Part shown: positions 586 to 37,569 of the stretch, one piece after another | How the letters are laid out: every line of letters starts with the position of its first letter | Numbering within the stretch: the first letter of the stretch is position 1 | IMG/VR virus record: IMGVR_UViG_2896607866_000013 | Direction: 5' to 3' (one strand) | From: a virus | Taxonomy: Duplodnaviria; Heunggongvirae; Uroviricota; Caudoviricetes | DNA: 46,788 bases | The notes under the pieces: generated by a model | The model's input: only the letters and a program-made list of their open reading frames with translations | Told to the model about the DNA's origin: nothing | The model's database searches: none | Program-made: the position numbers and the translations under genes

Positions 586-3377
586 TATGCAAGCCTCACA
601 ATATAGTTAAATGCGATGTTTTTGACGGTGTTTTCCGCGTTACCAGCAGCGTTAACGGTGATGGTGTGTCCATGTGAACCAATCGCAACGGAGTGCGCAT
701 GAGCACCAATTGGAACAGAGTGCGCATGGTTACCTGTAGTGCTTGTGGCACCAGACCAGGTTCTGGAAGCGTTAAAGTTTACAGGAACACCATAAGTAAA
801 TTGAGAGCCCGTAAATCCATGGGCTGGCGCAGAGCCACCCAGTGTAAATGCTCCACTTGCTGTATAGAAATTACCGCTATCACTTCTGAAGTAACCGAGA
901 GTACCAGTAATTTCCATAGTGCCTCGGCTGTGGTTATGGTCACCAGTGGCATTTGAAGACTTAGTACCATAATCAAACGACGACGTGGTTTTCGTCCCCA
1001 AATCCGTACTGGATGCACTGGCGCTGTGGGTGTGCGATTTAATGCCGTCCTGTTCCTGAGATAATACGGCTCGACCACTGGCAGGTTTGCCCTTAATCGT
1101 CCAGCCACGCATATCAGGGATCACGCCTGACGGATAAGCAGCTGCAAGTTTCGGGTAAGCAGATTTGTCAAAAGTCTGCCCCTGCATCAGGGCATAACCA
1201 GACGGAACGGTATCTGATGGCCACGGGATTGGTGCGCCGACTGGGTAGCTTTCTGGTGGAAGATTTTTCGAGGTATAAACTTCTGCCCAGTCTTCCTCAA
1301 AACCATAACCGTCTCTTGAAGAACGGTAGAACAGACCACCATTTCTGTAATGCGCCTTCATCTGCAAGGTCCGGCAACTTCCGACTCCGGTATAGAAGTT
1401 AACCAGAATATAGCTGTCGCCAGAGCGGGTGACATTGTAAGCGCCTGATTCGGCATTCCAGGGAACGGCTCCATCCGAATCCGCATAAGCCCCCGTCGAA
1501 CGTCGGGCAAATGCACCAATATTTTCCGGCGTGAGGTTAATATCCGCCGAGCCATCAAACTTAACACCGTTAATTTTTGGGTCTGCCGCAAGTTTCGTCG
1601 CGGTATCGGCGTTCCCCTTCAGTGCCCCGGTGATCCCATCAGTAACAGACAACGGACCTGAAATAGTCCCTCCAGTTGTTGGCAGCGCTCCAATATCTGA
1701 TGGTGTAGGTTTCTGATGTGAGCTATACATCGTATAAACAACACCATCGGTAACGCTGGAAGGCTTACTCGCTGAATATGTTAGCGAGGTATAAATAGAA
1801 ACTGACGCATTTGTAGTACAATCCCAATGGATATTTACACTCGTCGCATAATTGCCAATCTCAACGTAAATATCATATATATCGCCGGATGTGTTGATCC
1901 AGGCGAAATTCGTTAATCCGACGGCTGTACGCTTCCACAAAGCTCCGGTAATCCCTTTGGAGTTTCCATTGCCTGCTCGTAGAACCAGTTCAGATATACC
2001 TGCCTGTTGAGGTGCCCCCACGTTAAATCCAGCGCCACCAATCAATGCGATGTAAACGATGGAACTCGCTTGTGGCATGGTAACCGTTGCCAGTTTGAAC
2101 CACCCTGCCCCGCCAGAGAAAGAGATCGTTACTGAATTTAAAGTGCCAATATCTTTCGGTGTTAATGTTATATCCGCAGTCAGTGCTTTCCCGTTAACTT
2201 TTCGGTTAGATGGTACCCTGCCATTCGCATTGTCATTCGCTGCTTTAACTGCCTTCGGTGTCGCGGCAAGCGTTTCAGATGTGCTGTTGGTTGCACTGCT
2301 GAGCTGTACTATCCCCTTTTTCGTCGTGCTCGCATCCTCAAGCGCCACGGCGGATGCAATATCCTCTGCCCGTTTTGCCGCTGTCTCGGCGCGCGTTGCC
2401 GCGGATTCCGCCGTACTTTTGCTCTGAGCTGCCGCCGTCGCACTGCCAGCTGCCTCTGTCGCCTTCGTGGATGCCGTCGTGGCGCTGCCCTTTGCTGCTG
2501 ACGCCTGTCTGGTCGCCTCATCTTTTGAAGCAGACGCAGATGATGCCGATGACGCCGCCGAACTGGCGGACGATGCGGCAGCCGTTTTTGAGGATTCTGC
2601 GCTGGTTTCCGAGGCTTTCGCGTTCGTTTCGGATGTCTTCGCTGCCTCTTTTGAGGCCGCCGCATCCCGTGCTGAAGTGGCTGCTTCTGACGCTTTCGTG
2701 GTCGCGGTGGATGCAGAAGTGGCTGCTGATTGTTGTGACGCTGCCGCATTCGTTTCTGACGTTTTCGCCGCACCGGCACTGGTAGCCGCCGCGCTTTTTG
2801 AGGACTCTGCAGCGGCAGCACTTTTTGATGCTTCAGTAGCCTTTGTTGATGCCGTTCCTGCGCTGGAAGACGCTGACTGAGCCGACGTCGCGGCCTGCCC
2901 GGCTGATGTGCTGGCTGCACGTGCTGAGCCTGCAGCATCAGTCGCATGGGTTGCCGCCTCACTGGCAGATATGCTGGCATCGCTGGCTGACTTCTTCGCG
3001 GCTGCCGTGTTCTGTGCCACCGCGGACGCGTTACGCGCCACCTCTTCCACCATCAGTTCAAAACGGCGCAGTGCCTCAGGACGGGCATCATCCTCCGTCA
3101 TGGCACCGAGAAAATCATTCAGCGTACCGGGTCGGGAATCTTCATACACGGTGATGGTCCCGGCATGTGAAGGCGGAAAACCTTCAACCAGCAGGGTGAC
3201 GCTGTACTGACCATGCTCAACATCCATGCTGTAACGTCCGGCTTCATCCGGATTTTCAGAGGCCACCGTGTTCACCACCACCGTGCTGCTGGTCCGTCTG
3301 GCTTTCAGTTGAATGGTGCAGTTCTCTACCGGTTTTCCTGTGCCGTCTTTCAGCACACCTGAAATCTTTACTGCCAT
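585..3377 (-). CDS. stf: Side tail fiber protein (lambda Stf-like)
   Basis: ORF 585-3383; ATG at 3377 gives [17 protein letters not shown]... like lambda Stf, preceded by GGGGTG SD; long Ala/Ser/Thr-rich low-complexity shaft; C-terminal HxH repeats. Confidence 0.85.
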
Positions 3378-4133: not shown

Positions 4134-7100
4134 TCAGCTGATACTGATCCCTGCTGTGGATTTTTTCATGACCACAACCAGTAAATCACTGATGTACGTT
4201 GTCGGCGTCCAGTTGTTCGCACCGGCCGACGACACATTAAACGTCAGGGTGACATGACCCCGCCCTGCCGGCATATCTATCACCGATGAGAACACCCGGC
4301 TGACATCCGTTGCCGGTTCATGGAAAATCTCAACCCCGTTCTTCAGCACCTGCAGCTTACAGGTGGAATACCAGTACGACTGCTGATTCGGGCTGTTGAA
4401 ATTCTGGTGTTTCGTCCCGCGAAACAGCACCGGGGGAATGATAATCTGCCGGTCGAAGCCCTGGTCATCGTAAACTGTGACGGTTACCGTACCGCTGGCA
4501 TAACTGTTATTCCGGGGAAAGGCTTTCCCCACCGTCTTCACCAGGTCGCCTTCAATCTGGTTTGCAGACAGTTTCCCTCTGATGACACAGTTCTCGTTAA
4601 TGGTGACATTATTGAGCGTGCCGGTATTCGCGGTAATTGCTCCGCTGATATCCGCGTTCCTGGCTGTCAGCTTCCCTTCCGGCGTCAGGGAAAACGTCGG
4701 GGGGTTGCCGGATGACGTGATACTCGCCGCAAACAGACGCTTCAGGAACACGTCGTTCATGAACAGCTGATTCCCCTGCGCCACAAATAACGGAGTGCTG
4801 TTGCCGCTCTCCGGATTTATCATCGCGATACGGTCAGCCAGCAGCAGTATGTTGCTCAGTGGCTGGCCATCAGTATCCTCAATCCCTGCACCAATCCCGG
4901 CCACATAGGGAATGCCGTCTTTCGTTTTTTGAACCTTCAGCATGTACAGCGCAGTCAGGTCATCATTTGTGTCCTTCTGCACGCGCTGTATCTGCTGTAT
5001 GGTGGCGCTCTGGTCCTCCAGCGTTTTACTGACCGTCTGTGTGATTTCATTGCGGGTTTCGGTGATGGTGGTCTTCATCTCCGCCATCTCATCCGCAAGC
5101 TGGCTGTTGTCTATCAGCTCCCACAGCCCCTGAGCCAGATGCAGTTTTCCTATTTTTTCCCGGAAAAATTCCAGATACCCTTCACCATCATTGCTGGGCT
5201 GCCCGCTGACTTCCACAAACGCAGATTTCCCCACCAGGTTGACGCTGCGCACGTAAAACCAGAAATCCTTCCCGGGCTTAATGTGCGGGCCGGATACACT
5301 CCACTGACTGCCGGTCCCCAGATAACGGGCAGAGGTTTCCACCTGTGCGGCGTCTGCAATTTTTGCCTCCGAAAACCAGAACTCAAACTGCACCGTCGGG
5401 TCATAAATGGTCAGTTTCGGGACTGCCGTTATCTGAAAATACCCCGGCGTCAGTTCAACACCGGCAGGCGCTGCCGGTGCGTTAATCCGGAACGTGGTGG
5501 TGGCGGGTTCGCCCTGCTGGCCATAGCTGTTAATCGCCCTGACCGTCAGGGTGTATTCCCCGAGAGGCAGGCCACTGAAACGGTGCTCCGTATCGGCAGT
5601 GATGGCGGTGGTCAGCAGGCGGCTGTTCTCACCGCTTCCACTGGTCAGGCGCAGACTGAAGCGCACGCCCTTCACCACCCTCGGCGTGTCCCATTTCGCC
5701 TGTGCCAGATACTGACCGTCAGCCGCGCTCACCTCCACCGTCAGGTGCTGCACTGCCGGTGGAATAACGCTGTTCAGGGTGCCTGACTGCGGCTCAAAGC
5801 TGGCCCCGTTATCCACGATGGCTTCTTTTTCCGGTACGTGCTGCACCGCCGTGATGGCAAAGGTGCCGTCCGTGTTTTCCCGGATGGAGACACAGCGGAA
5901 CAGGCGACGACGCAGTGACGGCAGGGAGAGTCCCCATACACCGTATGTCTCCACACCATCAGGCAGGGTGCTGACCTGTATCCGGTCCGGCGCGGGGTGT
6001 GCAGTGATGTCCACACTCACCGGCTTACCGCTGCCGTTAATCAGGTTCACCGTGGCGGCACCTGTCTCCGGCAGGGTCACCTCACGGTCCAGTGTCAGGG
6101 TGCGGCTGGCGGCATCGATGTACAGGACACGTCCGCCGGTCATGGTCCCGGCATAGTCATTATCACAGATTTCAATAATGTCACCGGGTGTGTGACGCAG
6201 CCCCTGTGACCCGAGCGTGAAATCCACCGTCTGCGTTTCCAGCAGTCCGGTCTTTATCACCCACAGCCCGGCACGGTGGGCCTGACCGCGACTGGTGCAG
6301 CCGAACGCATCCATCTTCAGCAGGTTGCGCCCGTAGCGCAGTATGGCTTCCGGGTCTTCCACCAGTTCCGTGGAGGTCTGCCAGCCGTTCTGCGGGTCGG
6401 TGTAATTCACCTCCACCGCCGTGTGCCGGTCCTTCAGGGCACTGAAGCTGTAGCGGAACCCCACGCCGTTATCATCCACCACCACATCGCTGCTGGTGTA
6501 CGGCCACACCACATCCGACGGGCGGTCCTGAACAAACGTCAGCGTCTGACCGTTCCATACCGGCATACAGCGCATCGCAGAGCAGAAATCACTGAGAACG
6601 TCCCACGCCTTACGCTGTTGTGACAGGTACGCATTAAAGGTCATCCGCGGCTCTGTGCCCCCGAAACCATCCGGGACCGTCTGGTCGCAGTACTGCCCGA
6701 TGGCATACAGCGCCCACTTGTCAACATCCGCCGCCCCCAGACGTTTTCCCATGCCGTAGCGCGGGTGAGTCAGCATGTCCCACAGGCACCAGGCCGGGTT
6801 GTTGCTGTATGCCGGCTTCAGGCTGCCGTCCCAGATACCGCTGTAAGTGCGTTTTTCCGGGTCATAGTTTGACGGTACCTGAATGATGCGACCTCGGATA
6901 TGGTAGTTCACCGTCATCTGCTGACCGCCAAACTGCTCCGCATCCACCTGCAGCCCCACAATCGCCTTGTTCGGGTAGCACTGTTTCACATCGATGATTT
7001 CGGTGTATGACGACCACAGCGTTCTGTTCTGCAGCTGGTCCGTGGTGCTGTCCGCCGTCTCCCGGACCATCCGGATGTTAAAAGGACGGGGAGGCAGATT

Positions 7101-7610
7101 ATCCAGAATCACCGACGCCAGGTACTGTGAGGTGGTCTTGCCGTTAATGGTGACATCCTTTTCCGTCACCCAGTTACCGTTACGCTGCAACTGAATCAGC
7201 AGCCGGACAGAAGAGGGATTACGGTCGCCCTTTGAGGTGGTCTCCAACAGTGACTGCACCCCGAAGGTGACCCGCAGGCGGTCAATGTTCGCGGATGTAA
7301 TGGTGCGCGTTACCGGCTTTGCCTTCGTCACTTCCACGCCCAGTCCGGTTTCAGCTCCGGAGGACTCAAAGCCTTCCGGTGGTGTCTGCTCCTGCTCCCC
7401 GGCACGCCAGACCGCGGTCACACCGTGTATCACGGGATTACCGTCCGTGTCCGTCAGCGGGGTTTTGTTCACCAGGATACTCTGCAGTCCCTTCACCGGG
7501 CCTTCTATCGGTCCCTCACCAATCGCATCAATCACACTCATCATCTGCGTGGATTTGAGATTGTCCTTCGCCTCGCGCGGTGTGTGCGCCTTGCCGCCAC
7601 CTTTGCCCAT
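4134..7610 (-). CDS. J: Tail tip / host specificity protein J
   Basis: ATG at 7610 ([21 protein letters not shown]...), ~1158 aa, collinear with recalled lambda J over whole length. Confidence 0.9.
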
Positions 7611-7640
7611 TGTCTCACCCTTTACTGTGATAACTGTTAC

Positions 7641-7675
7641 GCACAAAAACAACAGGCATCCCTGAGGATGCCTGT
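7641..7675 (-). terminator. Terminator-like hairpin just upstream of J
   Basis: Perfect 10-bp stem ACAGGCATCC/GGATGCCTGT, 4-nt loop, then UGUUUUUGUG on - strand; J SD follows. Confidence 0.45.
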
Positions 7676-7806
7676 ATCATCACTGAATAAAACTTCTGAA
7701 TATCTTCACATTTTCACAAACTGACTGTGGTGCTAATAATTTCTCTGCGTTAATGTTTTTTGTCGTGACATAAGAATAATTCCTTACACTTAATCTTCGT
7801 AACGCT

Positions 7807-7848
7807 CCCGCAGTTCCGCAACTCTGCGGGATTTTTTTATTCTTTTTA
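7807..7848 (+). terminator. + strand intrinsic terminator abutting the I stop codon
   Basis: CCCGCAG-loop-CTGCGGG followed by ATTTTTTTATTCTTTTT on + strand. Confidence 0.5.
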
Positions 7849-8526
7849 CCCCTGCCGCCCGATAACCACGACCTTTCCGCCCCCGCCTTCATCACGGGTG
7901 CTGATGTCCTGGGATATCCGTCGTGAACCAACCAGCATTTCCCCGTAAGGCACCGGCATCGGGTTACCCTGGGCAATCATATTGTCCAGTGACGAAAAAT
8001 ACGTGTTCTGTTTACCGTTATCCGTTGCGCGGTAATCCGGTGTTTTTGCCTTCGGTGCCAGCATCTGGGCCACACCGCCCAGAATCATACTGGCACCCAG
8101 TGAAAACAGCATCGTGGTGGCAGAAAAACCACCGGCACTCAGGGCTGTACCCCATAACGCCATCGAGCCTCCGGCAGTGAAGAAAGAGCCCACGATGGCT
8201 GCCGCCCCCAGCACAATCTGCAGTCCGCCCTTTCCGGCTCCGGCCAGTCGCGGCACAATGTGGATGACCGCCCCCTCACCCAGAGGTTCGTGAAGACGGG
8301 CGTACACCGCCTCCGGTGCCGTGTCCTCACCGCGAATACGTATCTGGTACCAGCCTTCGTTCATCTGACGGCGGAATCCCGGCACCTGTAACGACAGCGC
8401 CCGGATGGCTTCCGCTGCCGTGTTCACGTACAGGCTGAGGCGGCGGCCAAATCGTTGTAAATCCCCGTGAAGGCAGATGCGTGCCAGTGGCGGTGACGCC
8501 AGACAGAATGCGTTCGTCGTTGCCAT
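7846..8526 (-). CDS. I: Tail assembly protein I
   Basis: 226 aa; ...ARICLHGDLQRFGRR...GKQNTYFSSLDNM... matches lambda I; overlaps K end as in lambda. Confidence 0.85.
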   Translation of the reverse strand: MATTNAFCLASPPLARICLHGDLQRFGRRLSLYVNTAAEAIRALSLQVPGFRRQMNEGWYQIRIRGEDTAPEAVYARLHEPLGEGAVIHIVPRLAGAGKGGLQIVLGAAAIVGSFFTAGGSMALWGTALSAGGFSATTMLFSLGASMILGGVAQMLAPKAKTPDYRATDNGKQNTYFSSLDNMIAQGNPMPVPYGEMLVGSRRISQDISTRDEGGGGKVVVIGRQG

Positions 8527-27038: not shown

Positions 27039-27232
27039 GAATCCTCCCGGCCGGGATAATATTGTGAGTAAAATGAGGAGCGGGCTGAAGTCCGGAAGTT
27101 ACAGGACAATGGCAGAAGAGAGACAACAGCCCGCAATACGAAAAAGGCCGCGCTATTGCGCAGAGTGATTACTGTCGGATATTATTCGCCAGCTGAAATA
27201 TTACTTCACGTTTTGTTGTTTATTCCTTGCCG

Positions 27233-27260
27233 CCCGCGTCTCCCAGCGCGGGCTTTTTTT
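27233..27260 (+). terminator. + strand terminator-like hairpin in the tRNA/nanS-p spacer
   Basis: CCCGCG-loop-CGCGGG followed by CTTTTTTT on + strand. Confidence 0.4.
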
Positions 27261-27487
27261 GTCCATAAGAAAGCCCCTCCGGAGAGGGGCTGGAGAGTGG
27301 CGCTATGTGCCATTGCATGGTGCCGGGTGCCTCCCGGTGAATTCAGTACCAGCACCTGAATCCGCGATTATCCCATATACCTACTCGCTGATTGCCCCTC
27401 CGCACAGGGGGATTCACCATGCCAGTTTCTTTTAACAAACTCCCCGCAAAACAGACAACTGTCAACCGTCTGAATTGTGAGACATTT

Positions 27488-27526: not shown

Positions 27527-27603
27527 TGGCGCGTTGTACTGGATTCGAACCAGTGACCGATTGCTTAGAAGGCAATTGCTCTGTCCGGCTGAGCTAACAA
27601 CGC
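27527..27603 (-). tRNA. argO: tRNA-Arg (anticodon UCU)
   Basis: 77 nt; 7-bp acceptor stem GCGTTGT/ACAACGC, anticodon loop CTTCTAA, TTCGAAT T-loop, CCA end. Confidence 0.85.
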
Positions 27604-27616
27604 AGGGTACAGATAA

Positions 27617-27693
27617 TGGACCGCCATCGAGGACTCGAACCCCGCGCAACCAGCTTCGAAGGCTGGCGCTCTATCCCGATGAGCTAATGGCGG
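27617..27693 (-). tRNA. argN: tRNA-Arg (anticodon UCG)
   Basis: 77 nt; acceptor CCGCCAT/ATGGCGG, anticodon loop CTTCGAA, TTCGAGT T-loop, CCA end. Confidence 0.75.
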
Positions 27694-27702
27694 TATGTGA
27701 TA

Positions 27703-27778
27703 TGGTGGCCCTTGCTGGATTTGAACCAGCGACCTGGCGATTATGAGTCGCTCGCTCTCACCACTGAGCTAAAGGGCC
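27703..27778 (-). tRNA. ileZ: tRNA with CAU anticodon (Ile2/ileX-like, or Met)
   Basis: 76 nt GGCCCTTTAGCTCAGTGG...ACTCATAATCG...GGGCCACCA; close to recalled E. coli ileX; ileZ-argN-argO order as in Stx-type phages. Confidence 0.8.
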
Positions 27779-35552: not shown

Positions 35553-36421
35553 TTACGCCCCCTTACCTCTGAAGGGTTCAGCGACAAATTTATGAGGCAG
35601 GCCAGTGCCGAAGCATCATTAATATAGTCATACAAGCTAACAGCCAGCGGAGATTCGGCTTTTGCCAACATAGGATAAAGCTGCTGCAGCCAGACCTGAT
35701 GAATTGATGAAATGTAGGAATAGAGAACGCTGGCGTTATGTGCAACATCGCTCAGTACAGAGGGATTTGAAAGCTGTTTCTCCATCTGGTTAAAGGCATT
35801 GATGTATGCCTCTTTGAACTGGGCAGCACGTTTACCCGTGAAGCCCATGGCAAGAAACGCAAAACCGTCGCGGGTGATTTGGTAACAAGGGAGTTTGCGG
35901 CCTGATGCGTCGGTGTATTCACTTAACACAAAATTGTGTTCAGTAAATTCAGCGGAACATTCGAGGTTTCTAATTCTATCTAAAACCCGCTCATGCCGTT
36001 TAGTAAAGTAATTAGCTACTGCAAGAGATGTGGTGACAACGCGACCATTGATAATCGTGATTTCAGGGTGAGATTGGGTTGGGAGAGTAGTCATGGTGAC
36101 AGCCCCTATGTTGAATTCAATGAACTCACCACCAAGGCTTTCCACGACCATATAGGTGGTGAGACGTACAGGGGTGGAAATACCGGTCAACATAGAACCC
36201 GGCCCAACCGAAGTTGGCCCTGCACGCCCCACCATAATTTGGGCGTAACGATGCTCATGACACGAAAAAACCGCATGAGCGCGGTTGTGCTCTATATTGA
36301 ATTTCGGGTTTCCACGCCCGGCACCCGCTTTATAAGGTGCCTGAACAGTGTAACGTCCCGGAATGGCAGAATCAATGTGCTGGTGGCGATTGGTAAACAG
36401 TTTGAAAATATTCCGGATCAT
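35549..36421 (-). CDS. Rha-family phage regulatory protein (copy 1 of tandem pair)
   Basis: 290 aa; C-terminal half has Rha signature VTTSLAVANYF.KRH..VL..IR.LE...GRKLPCYQITRDGFAFLAMGFTGKRAA.FKEAYINAFNQMEK. Confidence 0.65.
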   Translation of the reverse strand: MIRNIFKLFTNRHQHIDSAIPGRYTVQAPYKAGAGRGNPKFNIEHNRAHAVFSCHEHRYAQIMVGRAGPTSVGPGSMLTGISTPVRLTTYMVVESLGGEFIEFNIGAVTMTTLPTQSHPEITIINGRVVTTSLAVANYFTKRHERVLDRIRNLECSAEFTEHNFVLSEYTDASGRKLPCYQITRDGFAFLAMGFTGKRAAQFKEAYINAFNQMEKQLSNPSVLSDVAHNASVLYSYISSIHQVWLQQLYPMLAKAESPLAVSLYDYINDASALACLINLSLNPSEVRGRK

Positions 36422-37569
36422 TTACGCCCCCTTACCTCTGAAGGATTCAGCGACAAATTTATGAGGCAGGCCAGCGCCGAAGCATCATTAATATAGTCAT
36501 ACAAGCTAACAGCCAGCGGAGATTCGGCTTTTGCCAACATGGGATAAAGCTGCTGCAGCCAGACCTTGTGGATTACCGACAGGTGGGAGTAAAGCACGCT
36601 GGCGTTATCTGCGGCATCGCTCAGCGTGGATGGCTTTGAAAGCAGTTTTTCCATCTGGTTAAAGGCATTTATGTATGCCTCTTTGAACCGGGCAGCACGT
36701 TTACCAGTGAAGCCCATAGCAAGGAACGCGAAGCCATCGCGGGTGATTTGATAGCAAGGTAGTTTGCGGCCTGTGCAATCGGTGTAATCACTCACCGAAA
36801 AATTGCGGGCAGTGAATGATGCGGAGCATTCAAGCGTGCGGATCTTTTTCAGTACATCGTCATGACGTTTGGAGAAGAAGTTGGCAACAGCTAGGGATGA
36901 AGTAACAGCCTGACCATCAACGATGGCAATTTCAGGTTGAGTGAGGGTTGGGAGAGTAGTCATAGTGACAGCCCCGGTAGTCAGTTTTTTAGAAAACTCA
37001 CCACATGGGACGCCAATCACAGAGGTGGTGAGACGTACAGGGTTGGCGTTACCGGAGACTACCGAACCCGGCCCGACCGAAGTCGGCCCTGTACGCCCCA
37101 CCATAATTTGGGCGTAGCAATGCTCATGACACGAAAAAACCGCATGAGCGCGGTTATGCTCAGTAATCAATTTCAGGACGCCAATCCCGGCACCCGCTTT
37201 ATAAGGTGCCTGAACAGTGTAACGTCCCGGAATGGCAGAATCAATGTGCTGGTGGTCCTTCACACTCAACAAAATCACGCCTGAATTTCCACAAAGGACT
37301 AAAGCACTCATGCTGGTAGTCTTTGCGAAGATAGATAACGCGCTGTGTTTCTGGCTCCCAACGAATAACATGGACATAAAGCCCTCTTCCGTCACGAAAC
37401 CAGCGGTTAAGTTCCTGCACAACTCGCCCCCCACAGTCAGGTAAAGTTCTCTGTGGTTACTTACAGCCAGGTGATCTGGTAATCTGCATTCATGCCGTAA
37501 CAACAGGTGTTCAGCGACACTGACCACCAGCTGTTGCGACAAACGGTTATTTGCCGTTAAACTGTTCAT
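36418..37569 (-). CDS. Rha-family phage regulatory protein (copy 2, with unique ~93-aa N-terminal extension)
   Basis: 383 aa; C-terminal 290 aa paralogous to copy 1 (~870-bp tandem DNA repeat); ATG immediately after the CII-like stop. Confidence 0.6.
   Translation of the reverse strand: MNSLTANNRLSQQLVVSVAEHLLLRHECRLPDHLAVSNHRELYLTVGGELCRNLTAGFVTEEGFMSMLFVGSQKHSALSIFAKTTSMSALVLCGNSGVILLSVKDHQHIDSAIPGRYTVQAPYKAGAGIGVLKLITEHNRAHAVFSCHEHCYAQIMVGRTGPTSVGPGSVVSGNANPVRLTTSVIGVPCGEFSKKLTTGAVTMTTLPTLTQPEIAIVDGQAVTSSLAVANFFSKRHDDVLKKIRTLECSASFTARNFSVSDYTDCTGRKLPCYQITRDGFAFLAMGFTGKRAARFKEAYINAFNQMEKLLSKPSTLSDAADNASVLYSHLSVIHKVWLQQLYPMLAKAESPLAVSLYDYINDASALACLINLSLNPSEVRGRK

Follow-up and report, generated by a model that had tools for sequence, protein, structure and literature searches.

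The gap between tail genes I and J of this prophage very probably carries a self-contained small RNA (sRNA) "moron" cassette of the PasB/EcOnc22 family. We propose that its RNA is expressed in the lysogen, binds Hfq and pairs in trans. By its position, shared motifs and covariance-model score, the copy in the window (the whole 46,788-nt stretch of DNA analyzed here) is a diverged allele, so far without annotation, in a prophage sRNA family whose other members have been validated by experiment. The first-pass annotation had raised an sRNA gene as one reading of this gap. That reading is supported because the cassette appears homologous to two validated sRNAs that lie in the identical position and orientation.

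Layout of the I–J gap

Genes I and J were identified by their Pfam domains (Table 1), and a Lom homolog lies downstream of J. The J start codon occupies 7610–7608 and the I–J gap 7611–7845. Its length, 235 bp, is what had been estimated at first pass. The accompanying statement that lambda has I directly followed by J is wrong, as lambda has a 60-bp gap with its own sense-strand hairpin and T-run. The window and its relatives show directly where the element lies, which way it faces, how its promoter and terminator are built, what it is related to and how widely it occurs.

Pfam finds nothing in the gap. A search of the whole window with Rfam 15 at gathering thresholds matched no family there, and at E ≤ 10 over 7550–7900 it gave only two chance-level matches (18–19 bits, against thresholds of 53 and 105). 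Consensus scans by themselves do not beat chance: two promoter-like sites were found against 0.9 expected in shuffled sequence, and four terminator-like sites against 1.8. The feature stands above chance because it is conserved. The gap recurs, and even alleles that have diverged retain its promoter, its motifs and its terminator.

The predicted sigma-70 promoter, TTCACA-16-AATAAT, matches the consensus at 10 of 12 positions. A promoter-like site had been proposed at about 7707–7739; the site is present, but its true span lies a few bases away. The +1 is predicted to be the G at 7747, 7 nt after the −10 element, giving a 92-nt RNA where a plus-strand transcript of ~100 nt had been suggested. 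The plus-strand terminator reported to abut the I stop is also there, with its T7 ending 7 nt from that stop. Our covariance model (R1) scores the RNA at 96.9 bits (E 1.5e-17), the sole strong match in the window, with the window sequence itself included in the seed alignment. The fold energy of the RNA is −23.6 kcal/mol (z −3.6). A 5' helix (GCGUUA/UAACGC) in the window's minimum-energy fold was considered as a conserved element. Other alleles cannot form it, and it was left out of the model.

Table 1. Features of the I–J region in the window and of related loci. A2, A3 and A4 are the alignments and sample described in the text.
Feature	Position	Strand	Details
Tail tip/host-specificity gene J	4134–7610	−	Pfam FNIII-A_GpJ, Ig_J, Ig_GpJ_C, others
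Hairpin and U-run just upstream of the J Shine-Dalgarno	7642–7675	−	Stem 7675–7652; not part of the sRNA cassette
Dyad TCTGA-N6-TCACA, CRP-like	7695–7710	+	Within conserved block 7685–7713
sRNA sigma-70 promoter (predicted)	7713–7740	+	−35 TTCACA 7713–7718, 16-nt spacer, −10 AATAAT 7735–7740
Primary transcript (predicted), PasB/EcOnc22-family sRNA, 92 nt	7747–7838	+	Covariance model; alignment to PasB and EcOnc22
5' leader GCGUUAnnGUUUUUU	7747–7761	+	G1, C2, T4, T5, A6 and T-run invariant in A3 and A4
A-rich ARN-type stretch (AAG AAU AAU), then conserved UCC	7772–7783	+	From the alignments
UUAAUCUUC, single-stranded, candidate seed	7790–7798	+	AATCTTC invariant in A2 and A3
Intrinsic terminator (predicted), 3' end	7806–7838	+	Arms 7806–7813 and 7824–7831 (TCCCGCAG/CTGCGGGA), 10-nt loop, T7 7832–7838
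Tail assembly gene I	7846–8526	−	Pfam Lambda_tail_I, E 3.9e-15
Pre-J hairpin, L008 (lambda)	767–795		
Pre-J hairpin, L020	1899–1935		
Pre-J hairpin, L035	1861–1890		
Pre-J hairpin, L040	1867–1895		
EcOnc22 locus, Sakai NC_002695.2 (L014)	2902836–2902926		
EcOnc23 locus, Sakai NC_002695.2 (L015)	2676767–2676857		
EcOnc24 locus, Sakai NC_002695.2 (L016)	2166817–2166907		

The AT-rich stretch had been called non-coding, and no conserved ORF was found in the gap. It is extremely improbable that the gap is instead a mobile-element remnant or a small-protein gene, such as a protein moron or a type I toxin–antitoxin. One phage record, PhiR12_4 (L013), annotates a 32-aa hypothetical protein in its I–J gap (662–760, −), overlapping the cassette. 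This ORF is not conserved in other alleles and is probably a spurious gene call. In the window, the only ORFs of the gap are 22–23 aa long with TTG or GTG starts; none has an ATG or exceeds 23 aa, none is conserved, and they are broken by non-triplet indels between alleles. A remnant could be read from the 8-bp AT-rich inverted repeat that flanks the module (GAATAAAA/TTTTATTC, 7685–7692 and 7835–7842). This sole flanking repeat is within chance, however, and is not kept in E2348/69; no transposase, longer terminal repeats or target duplication was seen. Both candidates were rejected.

Relation to PasB and EcOnc22–24

Expression, size, Hfq dependence and many RNA partners are known from papers on the homologs. 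PasB is E2348CN_0006 of EPEC O127:H6 E2348/69 (Pearl Mizrahi et al. 2021, PMC8550237). It maps to NC_011601.1 1466343–1466261 on the minus strand, 83 nt, between E2348C_1436 and E2348C_1437 (Table S6, PMC8550237), and both RNA-seq and Northern blot give this size (PMC8550237). In an hfq deletion its level changes by log2 −6.8 and −2.4, and RIL-seq recorded 37 interactions for it, core-genome mRNAs among them (PMC8550237). Virulence-activating conditions give a lower PasB level than static LB, and its table entry notes no EHEC homolog (PMC8550237). RefSeq annotates the neighbors of PasB on the plus strand, as tail assembly protein I, ending at 1466255, and gpJ, starting at 1466496. PasB fills the I–J gap of E2348/69 PP6; it runs antisense to both tail genes, and its terminator adjoins the stop of I. 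The published Northern probe, AATCCCGCAGTGATCGCGGAGCT (PMC8550237), covers the stem-loop equivalent to the window terminator.

The window and E2348/69 gaps give an 89% overall alignment and share the −35, the −10 position and the terminator stem. Both place the RNA on the antisense strand of the same gap, behind the same upstream block. The 5' leader, A-rich stretch, AUCUUC region, CCCGCAG/CUGCGGG stem and U7 are also common to the two RNAs. They differ in the 5' body, the pre-terminator segment and the loop, and the −10 is TATAAT in PasB versus AATAAT in the window. Identity between the RNAs is ~60–64% in the alignment. BLAST with PasB aligns the terminator only (33 nt, 39 bits), so homology to PasB rests on synteny, shared motifs and the model. 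For the same reason, the PasB census made by BLAST (Zhu, Shabalina & Storz 2026, bioRxiv 10.64898/2026.05.13.724894), like others of its kind, probably misses the window allele.

The second validated relative is EcOnc22, on the plus strand of Sakai Sp15. It gives a Northern band of ~85 nt and is destabilized without Hfq (Table S2, PMC4104026). Its homologs are EcOnc23 (Sp14) and EcOnc24 (Sp11) (Tree et al. 2014, PMC4104026), and its target is given as unknown (PMC7873438). The published EcOnc coordinates refer to an older genome version, from which we infer a shift of ~+128 to +143. The shift was calibrated on AgvB, whose terminator lies ~128–143 nt above the published peak. EcOnc22, EcOnc23 and EcOnc24 fall in I–J gaps of NC_002695.2, where the tail genes are on the minus strand, and after the shift all three Hfq peaks lie inside ~90-nt covariance-model matches. 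Placed in this way, by an inferred shift between genome versions, EcOnc22–24 appear to sit on the cassette.

Like the window RNA, EcOnc22–24 are antisense to the tail genes in an I–J gap and have an AATAAT −10. Their 5' body is different and shorter. BLAST aligns the window RNA to EcOnc22 at 80% over 70 nt (E 2e-11 within the window), and the two are ~64% identical in the alignment. Compared in sequence and position, EcOnc22–24 and PasB appear to be alleles of one locus family. A literature search found no published link between EcOnc22–24 and PasB. Apart from the papers on PasB and the EcOnc RNAs, it turned up no account of an sRNA located between a tail assembly gene and a host-specificity gene.

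An IS009 RNA element lies at 44–242 (−) in the window (225 bits), ~7.5 kb from the sRNA, which fits its reported commonness in PasB flanks.

Conserved scaffold, variable body and distribution

We aligned twelve gaps from diverse phages (A2) and, separately, the RNA parts alone (A3). A further sample from IMG/VR (A4) was selected on UUAAUCUUC and is not independent evidence for UUAAUCUUC. Across at least five alleles and 40 distinct sequences the same scaffold is kept: the −10, the GCGUUA..U-run leader, an A-rich run with UCC, UUAAUCUUC, the CCCGCAG/CUGCGGG stem and U7. Between these blocks the sequence varies. The −10 is invariant as nATnAT across the 12 aligned gaps, and in 31 of the 33 different upstream sequences compared, GCGTTA follows it at a constant 6 nt. 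Every allele has the A-rich run (AACAAAAACAAC, AAUAAAAACAAAAC or GAAAAAUAAC), followed by (U)CC. In the window, as in PasB, the terminator stem with its U-run adjoins the I stop. Alleles differ in the terminator loop, not in the stem or the U-run. Because the stem never varies, it offers no covariation support.

The predicted start of the RNA is tentative. For the 83-nt PasB, the −10 predicts a +1 that is ~15 nt upstream of the 5' end reported. Its equivalent in the window is ~7761, which gives an RNA of ~78 nt. The RNA may be processed downstream of the U-run, the PasB end may have been mapped only approximately, or the predicted +1 may be off.

Upstream of the promoter is a dyad, TCTGA-N6-TCACA(TTT), at a fixed distance of 24 nt from the −10. 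Its half-sites are invariant and its spacer variable in all promoter-bearing cassettes, including every array unit. The dyad matches 9 of 10 core positions of a CRP site (TGTGA-N6-TCACA). Taken alone it is weak, as the window has four CRP-like sites against 1.6 expected by chance. Canonical activating sites for CRP are centered at −41.5 or −61.5, plus or minus helical turns. Measured from the predicted +1, the dyad is centered at ~−44.5, which is not a canonical activating position. Measured from the reported PasB 5' end, the center is at ~−59.5 to −61.5. The higher level of PasB in LB is compatible with control by CRP and does not discriminate. We regard the dyad as a putative site for a shared regulator.

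The cassette is common in E. coli. The gap matches 1,378 of 5,426 complete E. coli genomes, a single genome having as many as 8 copies, and E. coli O39:NM F8704-2 gave the sole 100% match. It also matches 149 phage records, of which most are Stx1a-, Stx2a- and Stx2c-converting phages, and nowhere is it annotated. The allele body (first 71 nt) occurs in 1,259 of the 5,426 genomes, mostly at 95–99% identity, and the window allele occurs in Stx1a and Stx2c phages. IMG/VR contigs gave 88 model matches with 40 distinct sequences, and the window allele is the commonest type among them. A scan of genome contigs with protein I, made to find relatives in other genera, gave no cassette outside E. coli-type sequences. 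Most of its matches were junctions of the lambda type, and many of these come from lambda DNA contaminating assemblies of unrelated organisms. L021–L034 and others, for example, are low-coverage contigs with an identical lambda-type I gene, assigned to Neobacillus, Pseudomonas, Shewanella, Bradyrhizobium and other organisms. They are most likely lambda control-DNA contamination.

These data also bear on whether the cassette is a decaying, silent relic of PasB/EcOnc22 in this prophage, which we consider very unlikely. Such decay does occur in Pas families, as the terminator-less PasA-3 is a possible pseudogene (Zhu et al., bioRxiv 10.64898/2026.05.13.724894). Some related loci keep the RNA body without a promoter, and the window has a −10 of AATAAT rather than TATAAT. 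This same −10, however, is that of the expressed copy in Sp15, the Stx1 prophage of EHEC O157:H7 Sakai; the RNA of that copy, EcOnc22, was seen on a Northern blot. No element of the window cassette is damaged, from the dyad and promoter through the leader and motifs to the terminator stem and U7, and the allele body is held at 95–99% identity in about a thousand genomes. An active cassette remains our preferred reading.

Some junctions hold more than one unit. L087 (IMGVR_UViG_2728369607_000007, 313–1233) has an I–J gap of ~920 bp with four cassettes. L083 and L080 also have tandem arrays. In these three loci a single I–J gap holds 2–4 different cassettes, each with dyad, promoter and terminator. 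One L087 unit (~925–760, −) departs from the others in its terminator and in its body, which is unrelated. Of the 5,426 complete E. coli genomes, 67, mostly STEC, carry the four-unit array.

At L109 (742–1956) and 11 similar loci (for example L089), a sodC-like Cu,Zn superoxide dismutase gene lies between J and the sRNA body. This sodC moron is on the sRNA strand and replaces the sRNA promoter and the pre-J hairpin. Some 90 nt separate the end of sodC from the RNA body and its terminator, which follow downstream. At these loci the RNA could be a 3'-UTR product.

A broader reading of the family is possible, though we hold it only tentatively. The I–J junction of lambdoid coliphages would be a dedicated, expandable landing site for diversifying Hfq-sRNA cassettes, of which PasB and EcOnc22–24 are two named alleles. 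Their shared dyad would connect them to one host signal, and they would accumulate in arrays of 2–4. The window allele, commonest in E. coli and found in Stx1a and Stx2c phages, would be missed by BLAST censuses and have a target set distinct from that of PasB.

The pre-J hairpin and the proposed action of the RNA

The first-pass annotation described a minus-strand 10-bp hairpin with a U-tract just before the J Shine-Dalgarno. It is present: the stem, ACAGGCATCC/GGATGCCTGT, is a perfect 10 bp with a 4-nt loop and is followed by TGTTTTTGTG (UGUUUUUGUG), and its fold z-score is −3.6. That annotation took the hairpin as one boundary of an insert bounded by terminators on both sides, and proposed a comparison of the junction with lambda and other lambdoid phages. 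The cassette is indeed missing from those junctions, but the hairpin is present in them. In lambda, the 60-bp gap has an AACCGCC-TGCG-GGCGGTT hairpin and then TTTGTCATTT, which together directly precede the ribosome-binding site of J. Prophages of S. flexneri, E. ruysiae and Citrobacter werkmanii that lack the insert also have a pre-J hairpin. The covariance model has no match in the lambda, Citrobacter, S. flexneri or E. ruysiae junctions, where the gap is only ~60 bp. Four unrelated stems (window, E2348, PPompW and lambda/Citrobacter types) all have the form of a hairpin and then a U-run.

Because the hairpin is present in lambda-type junctions without the insert, and its structure is kept despite unrelated stems, comparison of these sequences marks it as an ancestral, structurally conserved feature of lambdoid I–J junctions. 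The inserted module is then only ~7695–7845, comprising the upstream block, promoter, RNA and terminator. The hairpin itself looks like an intrinsic terminator or an mRNA-stabilizing hairpin inside the late operon, as predicted from its sequence. We found no description of it in the literature. A sense-strand sRNA ending at this hairpin was also considered and rejected. A scan found no minus-strand promoter for it, and in the arrays the conserved block travels with the cassette, not with the hairpin.

In the antisense reading, a TGTCTGA heptamer occurs four times in YYZ-2008 (L006) and twice in VT1-Sakai, BP-4795 and others (A2 columns 54–83). This copy-number variation sits directly upstream of the J ribosome-binding site.

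The hairpin raises the question of action in cis. The RNA might act mainly as an antisense regulator or insulator that, with the pre-J hairpin, tunes or silences J and the downstream lom and tail-fibre genes. It is perfectly complementary to the I–J spacer of the late tail mRNA, the cassette is always at the I–J junction, and every lambdoid junction examined has a terminator-like sense hairpin before J. We nevertheless think a mainly cis role unlikely. Hairpin and cassette do not form a unit, since lambda-type phages have the first and lack the second, and the RNA overlaps neither the J ribosome-binding site nor any coding sequence. In lambda, late transcription is Q-antiterminated, and the hairpin should be read through. 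PasB, moreover, has its 37 partners on Hfq in trans, core-genome mRNAs included. Nothing specific points to the insulator that had been offered as the alternative to an sRNA gene. Cis and trans roles are mutually compatible.

The mechanism we favor is action in trans. For the window allele we predict expression, a +1, sites of contact with Hfq, a seed and targets. Since its predicted sigma-70 promoter is its own and independent of the Q-dependent late promoter, the RNA would be made in the lysogen; this extends to the window what was found for the homologs, which are detected in uninduced lysogens. Transcription from the strand opposite the tail genes would yield an RNA of ~80–92 nt, and the intrinsic terminator would stop it 7 nt before gene I. 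The U-rich 3' end and the A-rich ARN stretch would bind Hfq. ARN motifs have been described as Hfq distal-face sites (PMC4104026), and the window stretch AAGAAUAAU may be such a site, with the U7 tail a second putative contact. The single-stranded UUAAUCUUC and the allele-specific 5' body would then pair in trans with host and prophage mRNAs. In PasB, the proposed seed is directly upstream of the terminator (Zhu et al., bioRxiv 10.64898/2026.05.13.724894). As the family scaffold is kept while the variable body differs, the window allele probably has a partly different target set.

An architectural parallel is AgvB/AsxR (RF02702, RF02703), prophage-borne, Hfq-bound short anti-sRNAs (Tree et al. 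2014, PMC4104026). Both groups have a conserved 3' part, a variable 5' part with ARN motifs and multiple alleles across prophages. AgvB/AsxR, however, lie downstream of PR' near the lysis genes, whereas the window cassette is in the tail operon. Their conserved 3' region of ~42 nt (..GUAUCUCAUGC..UUGCCCGAACCCAyUCGGGC; PMC4104026) has no sequence similarity to the window RNA. Identity with AgvB/AsxR was rejected, there being no RF02702 or RF02703 match and the location being different. Anti-sRNA (sponge) activity belongs to AgvB/AsxR, and the I–J family is likened to them by architecture. The cassette also resembles the lambdoid "morons" (Juhala et al. 2000, as cited in PMC4104026). It is an autonomous promoter and terminator unit between two late-operon genes and is absent from lambda. 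Unlike protein morons, of which sodC occupies the same junction in some phages, it carries a non-coding RNA, and it is oriented opposite to the operon.

Other RNA elements were seen elsewhere in the window. Two C4 antisense RNA and isrK pairs lie 869 bp apart (36152–36340 and 37021–37209, −; Rfam 82 and 59–62 bits), which suggests a duplicated P1/P7-type immunity (ant-control) module. Three tRNA genes (27530–27778, −) adjoin STnc100, an arrangement typical of Stx-type phages in the region from Q to the lysis genes. A stretch at 27171–27260 (+), next to STnc100 (27261–27451, −), ends in a good terminator, CCCGCG..CGCGGG with T7, that converges on the STnc100 terminator. The stretch has a weak 17-bit match to the covariance model. 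It may be another convergent prophage sRNA, like those reported by Tree et al. from the region downstream of PR'.

It is established that sRNAs encoded by prophages can join the Hfq network of their host, and the cassette is no new kind of biology. What the comparison adds is that PasB in EPEC, EcOnc22–24 in EHEC and a third, commoner, unnamed allele appear to form one family at one locus. Surveys of "PasB" probably undercount the family because these three alleles belong to one locus. The window allele is carried by Stx1a- and Stx2c-converting phages and by about a quarter of complete E. coli genomes. Because it has neither an annotation nor an Rfam model, transcriptome and interactome studies will treat it as blank intergenic DNA. 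With its conserved blocks, variable body and arrays, the family offers a simple system for phage sRNA target diversification.
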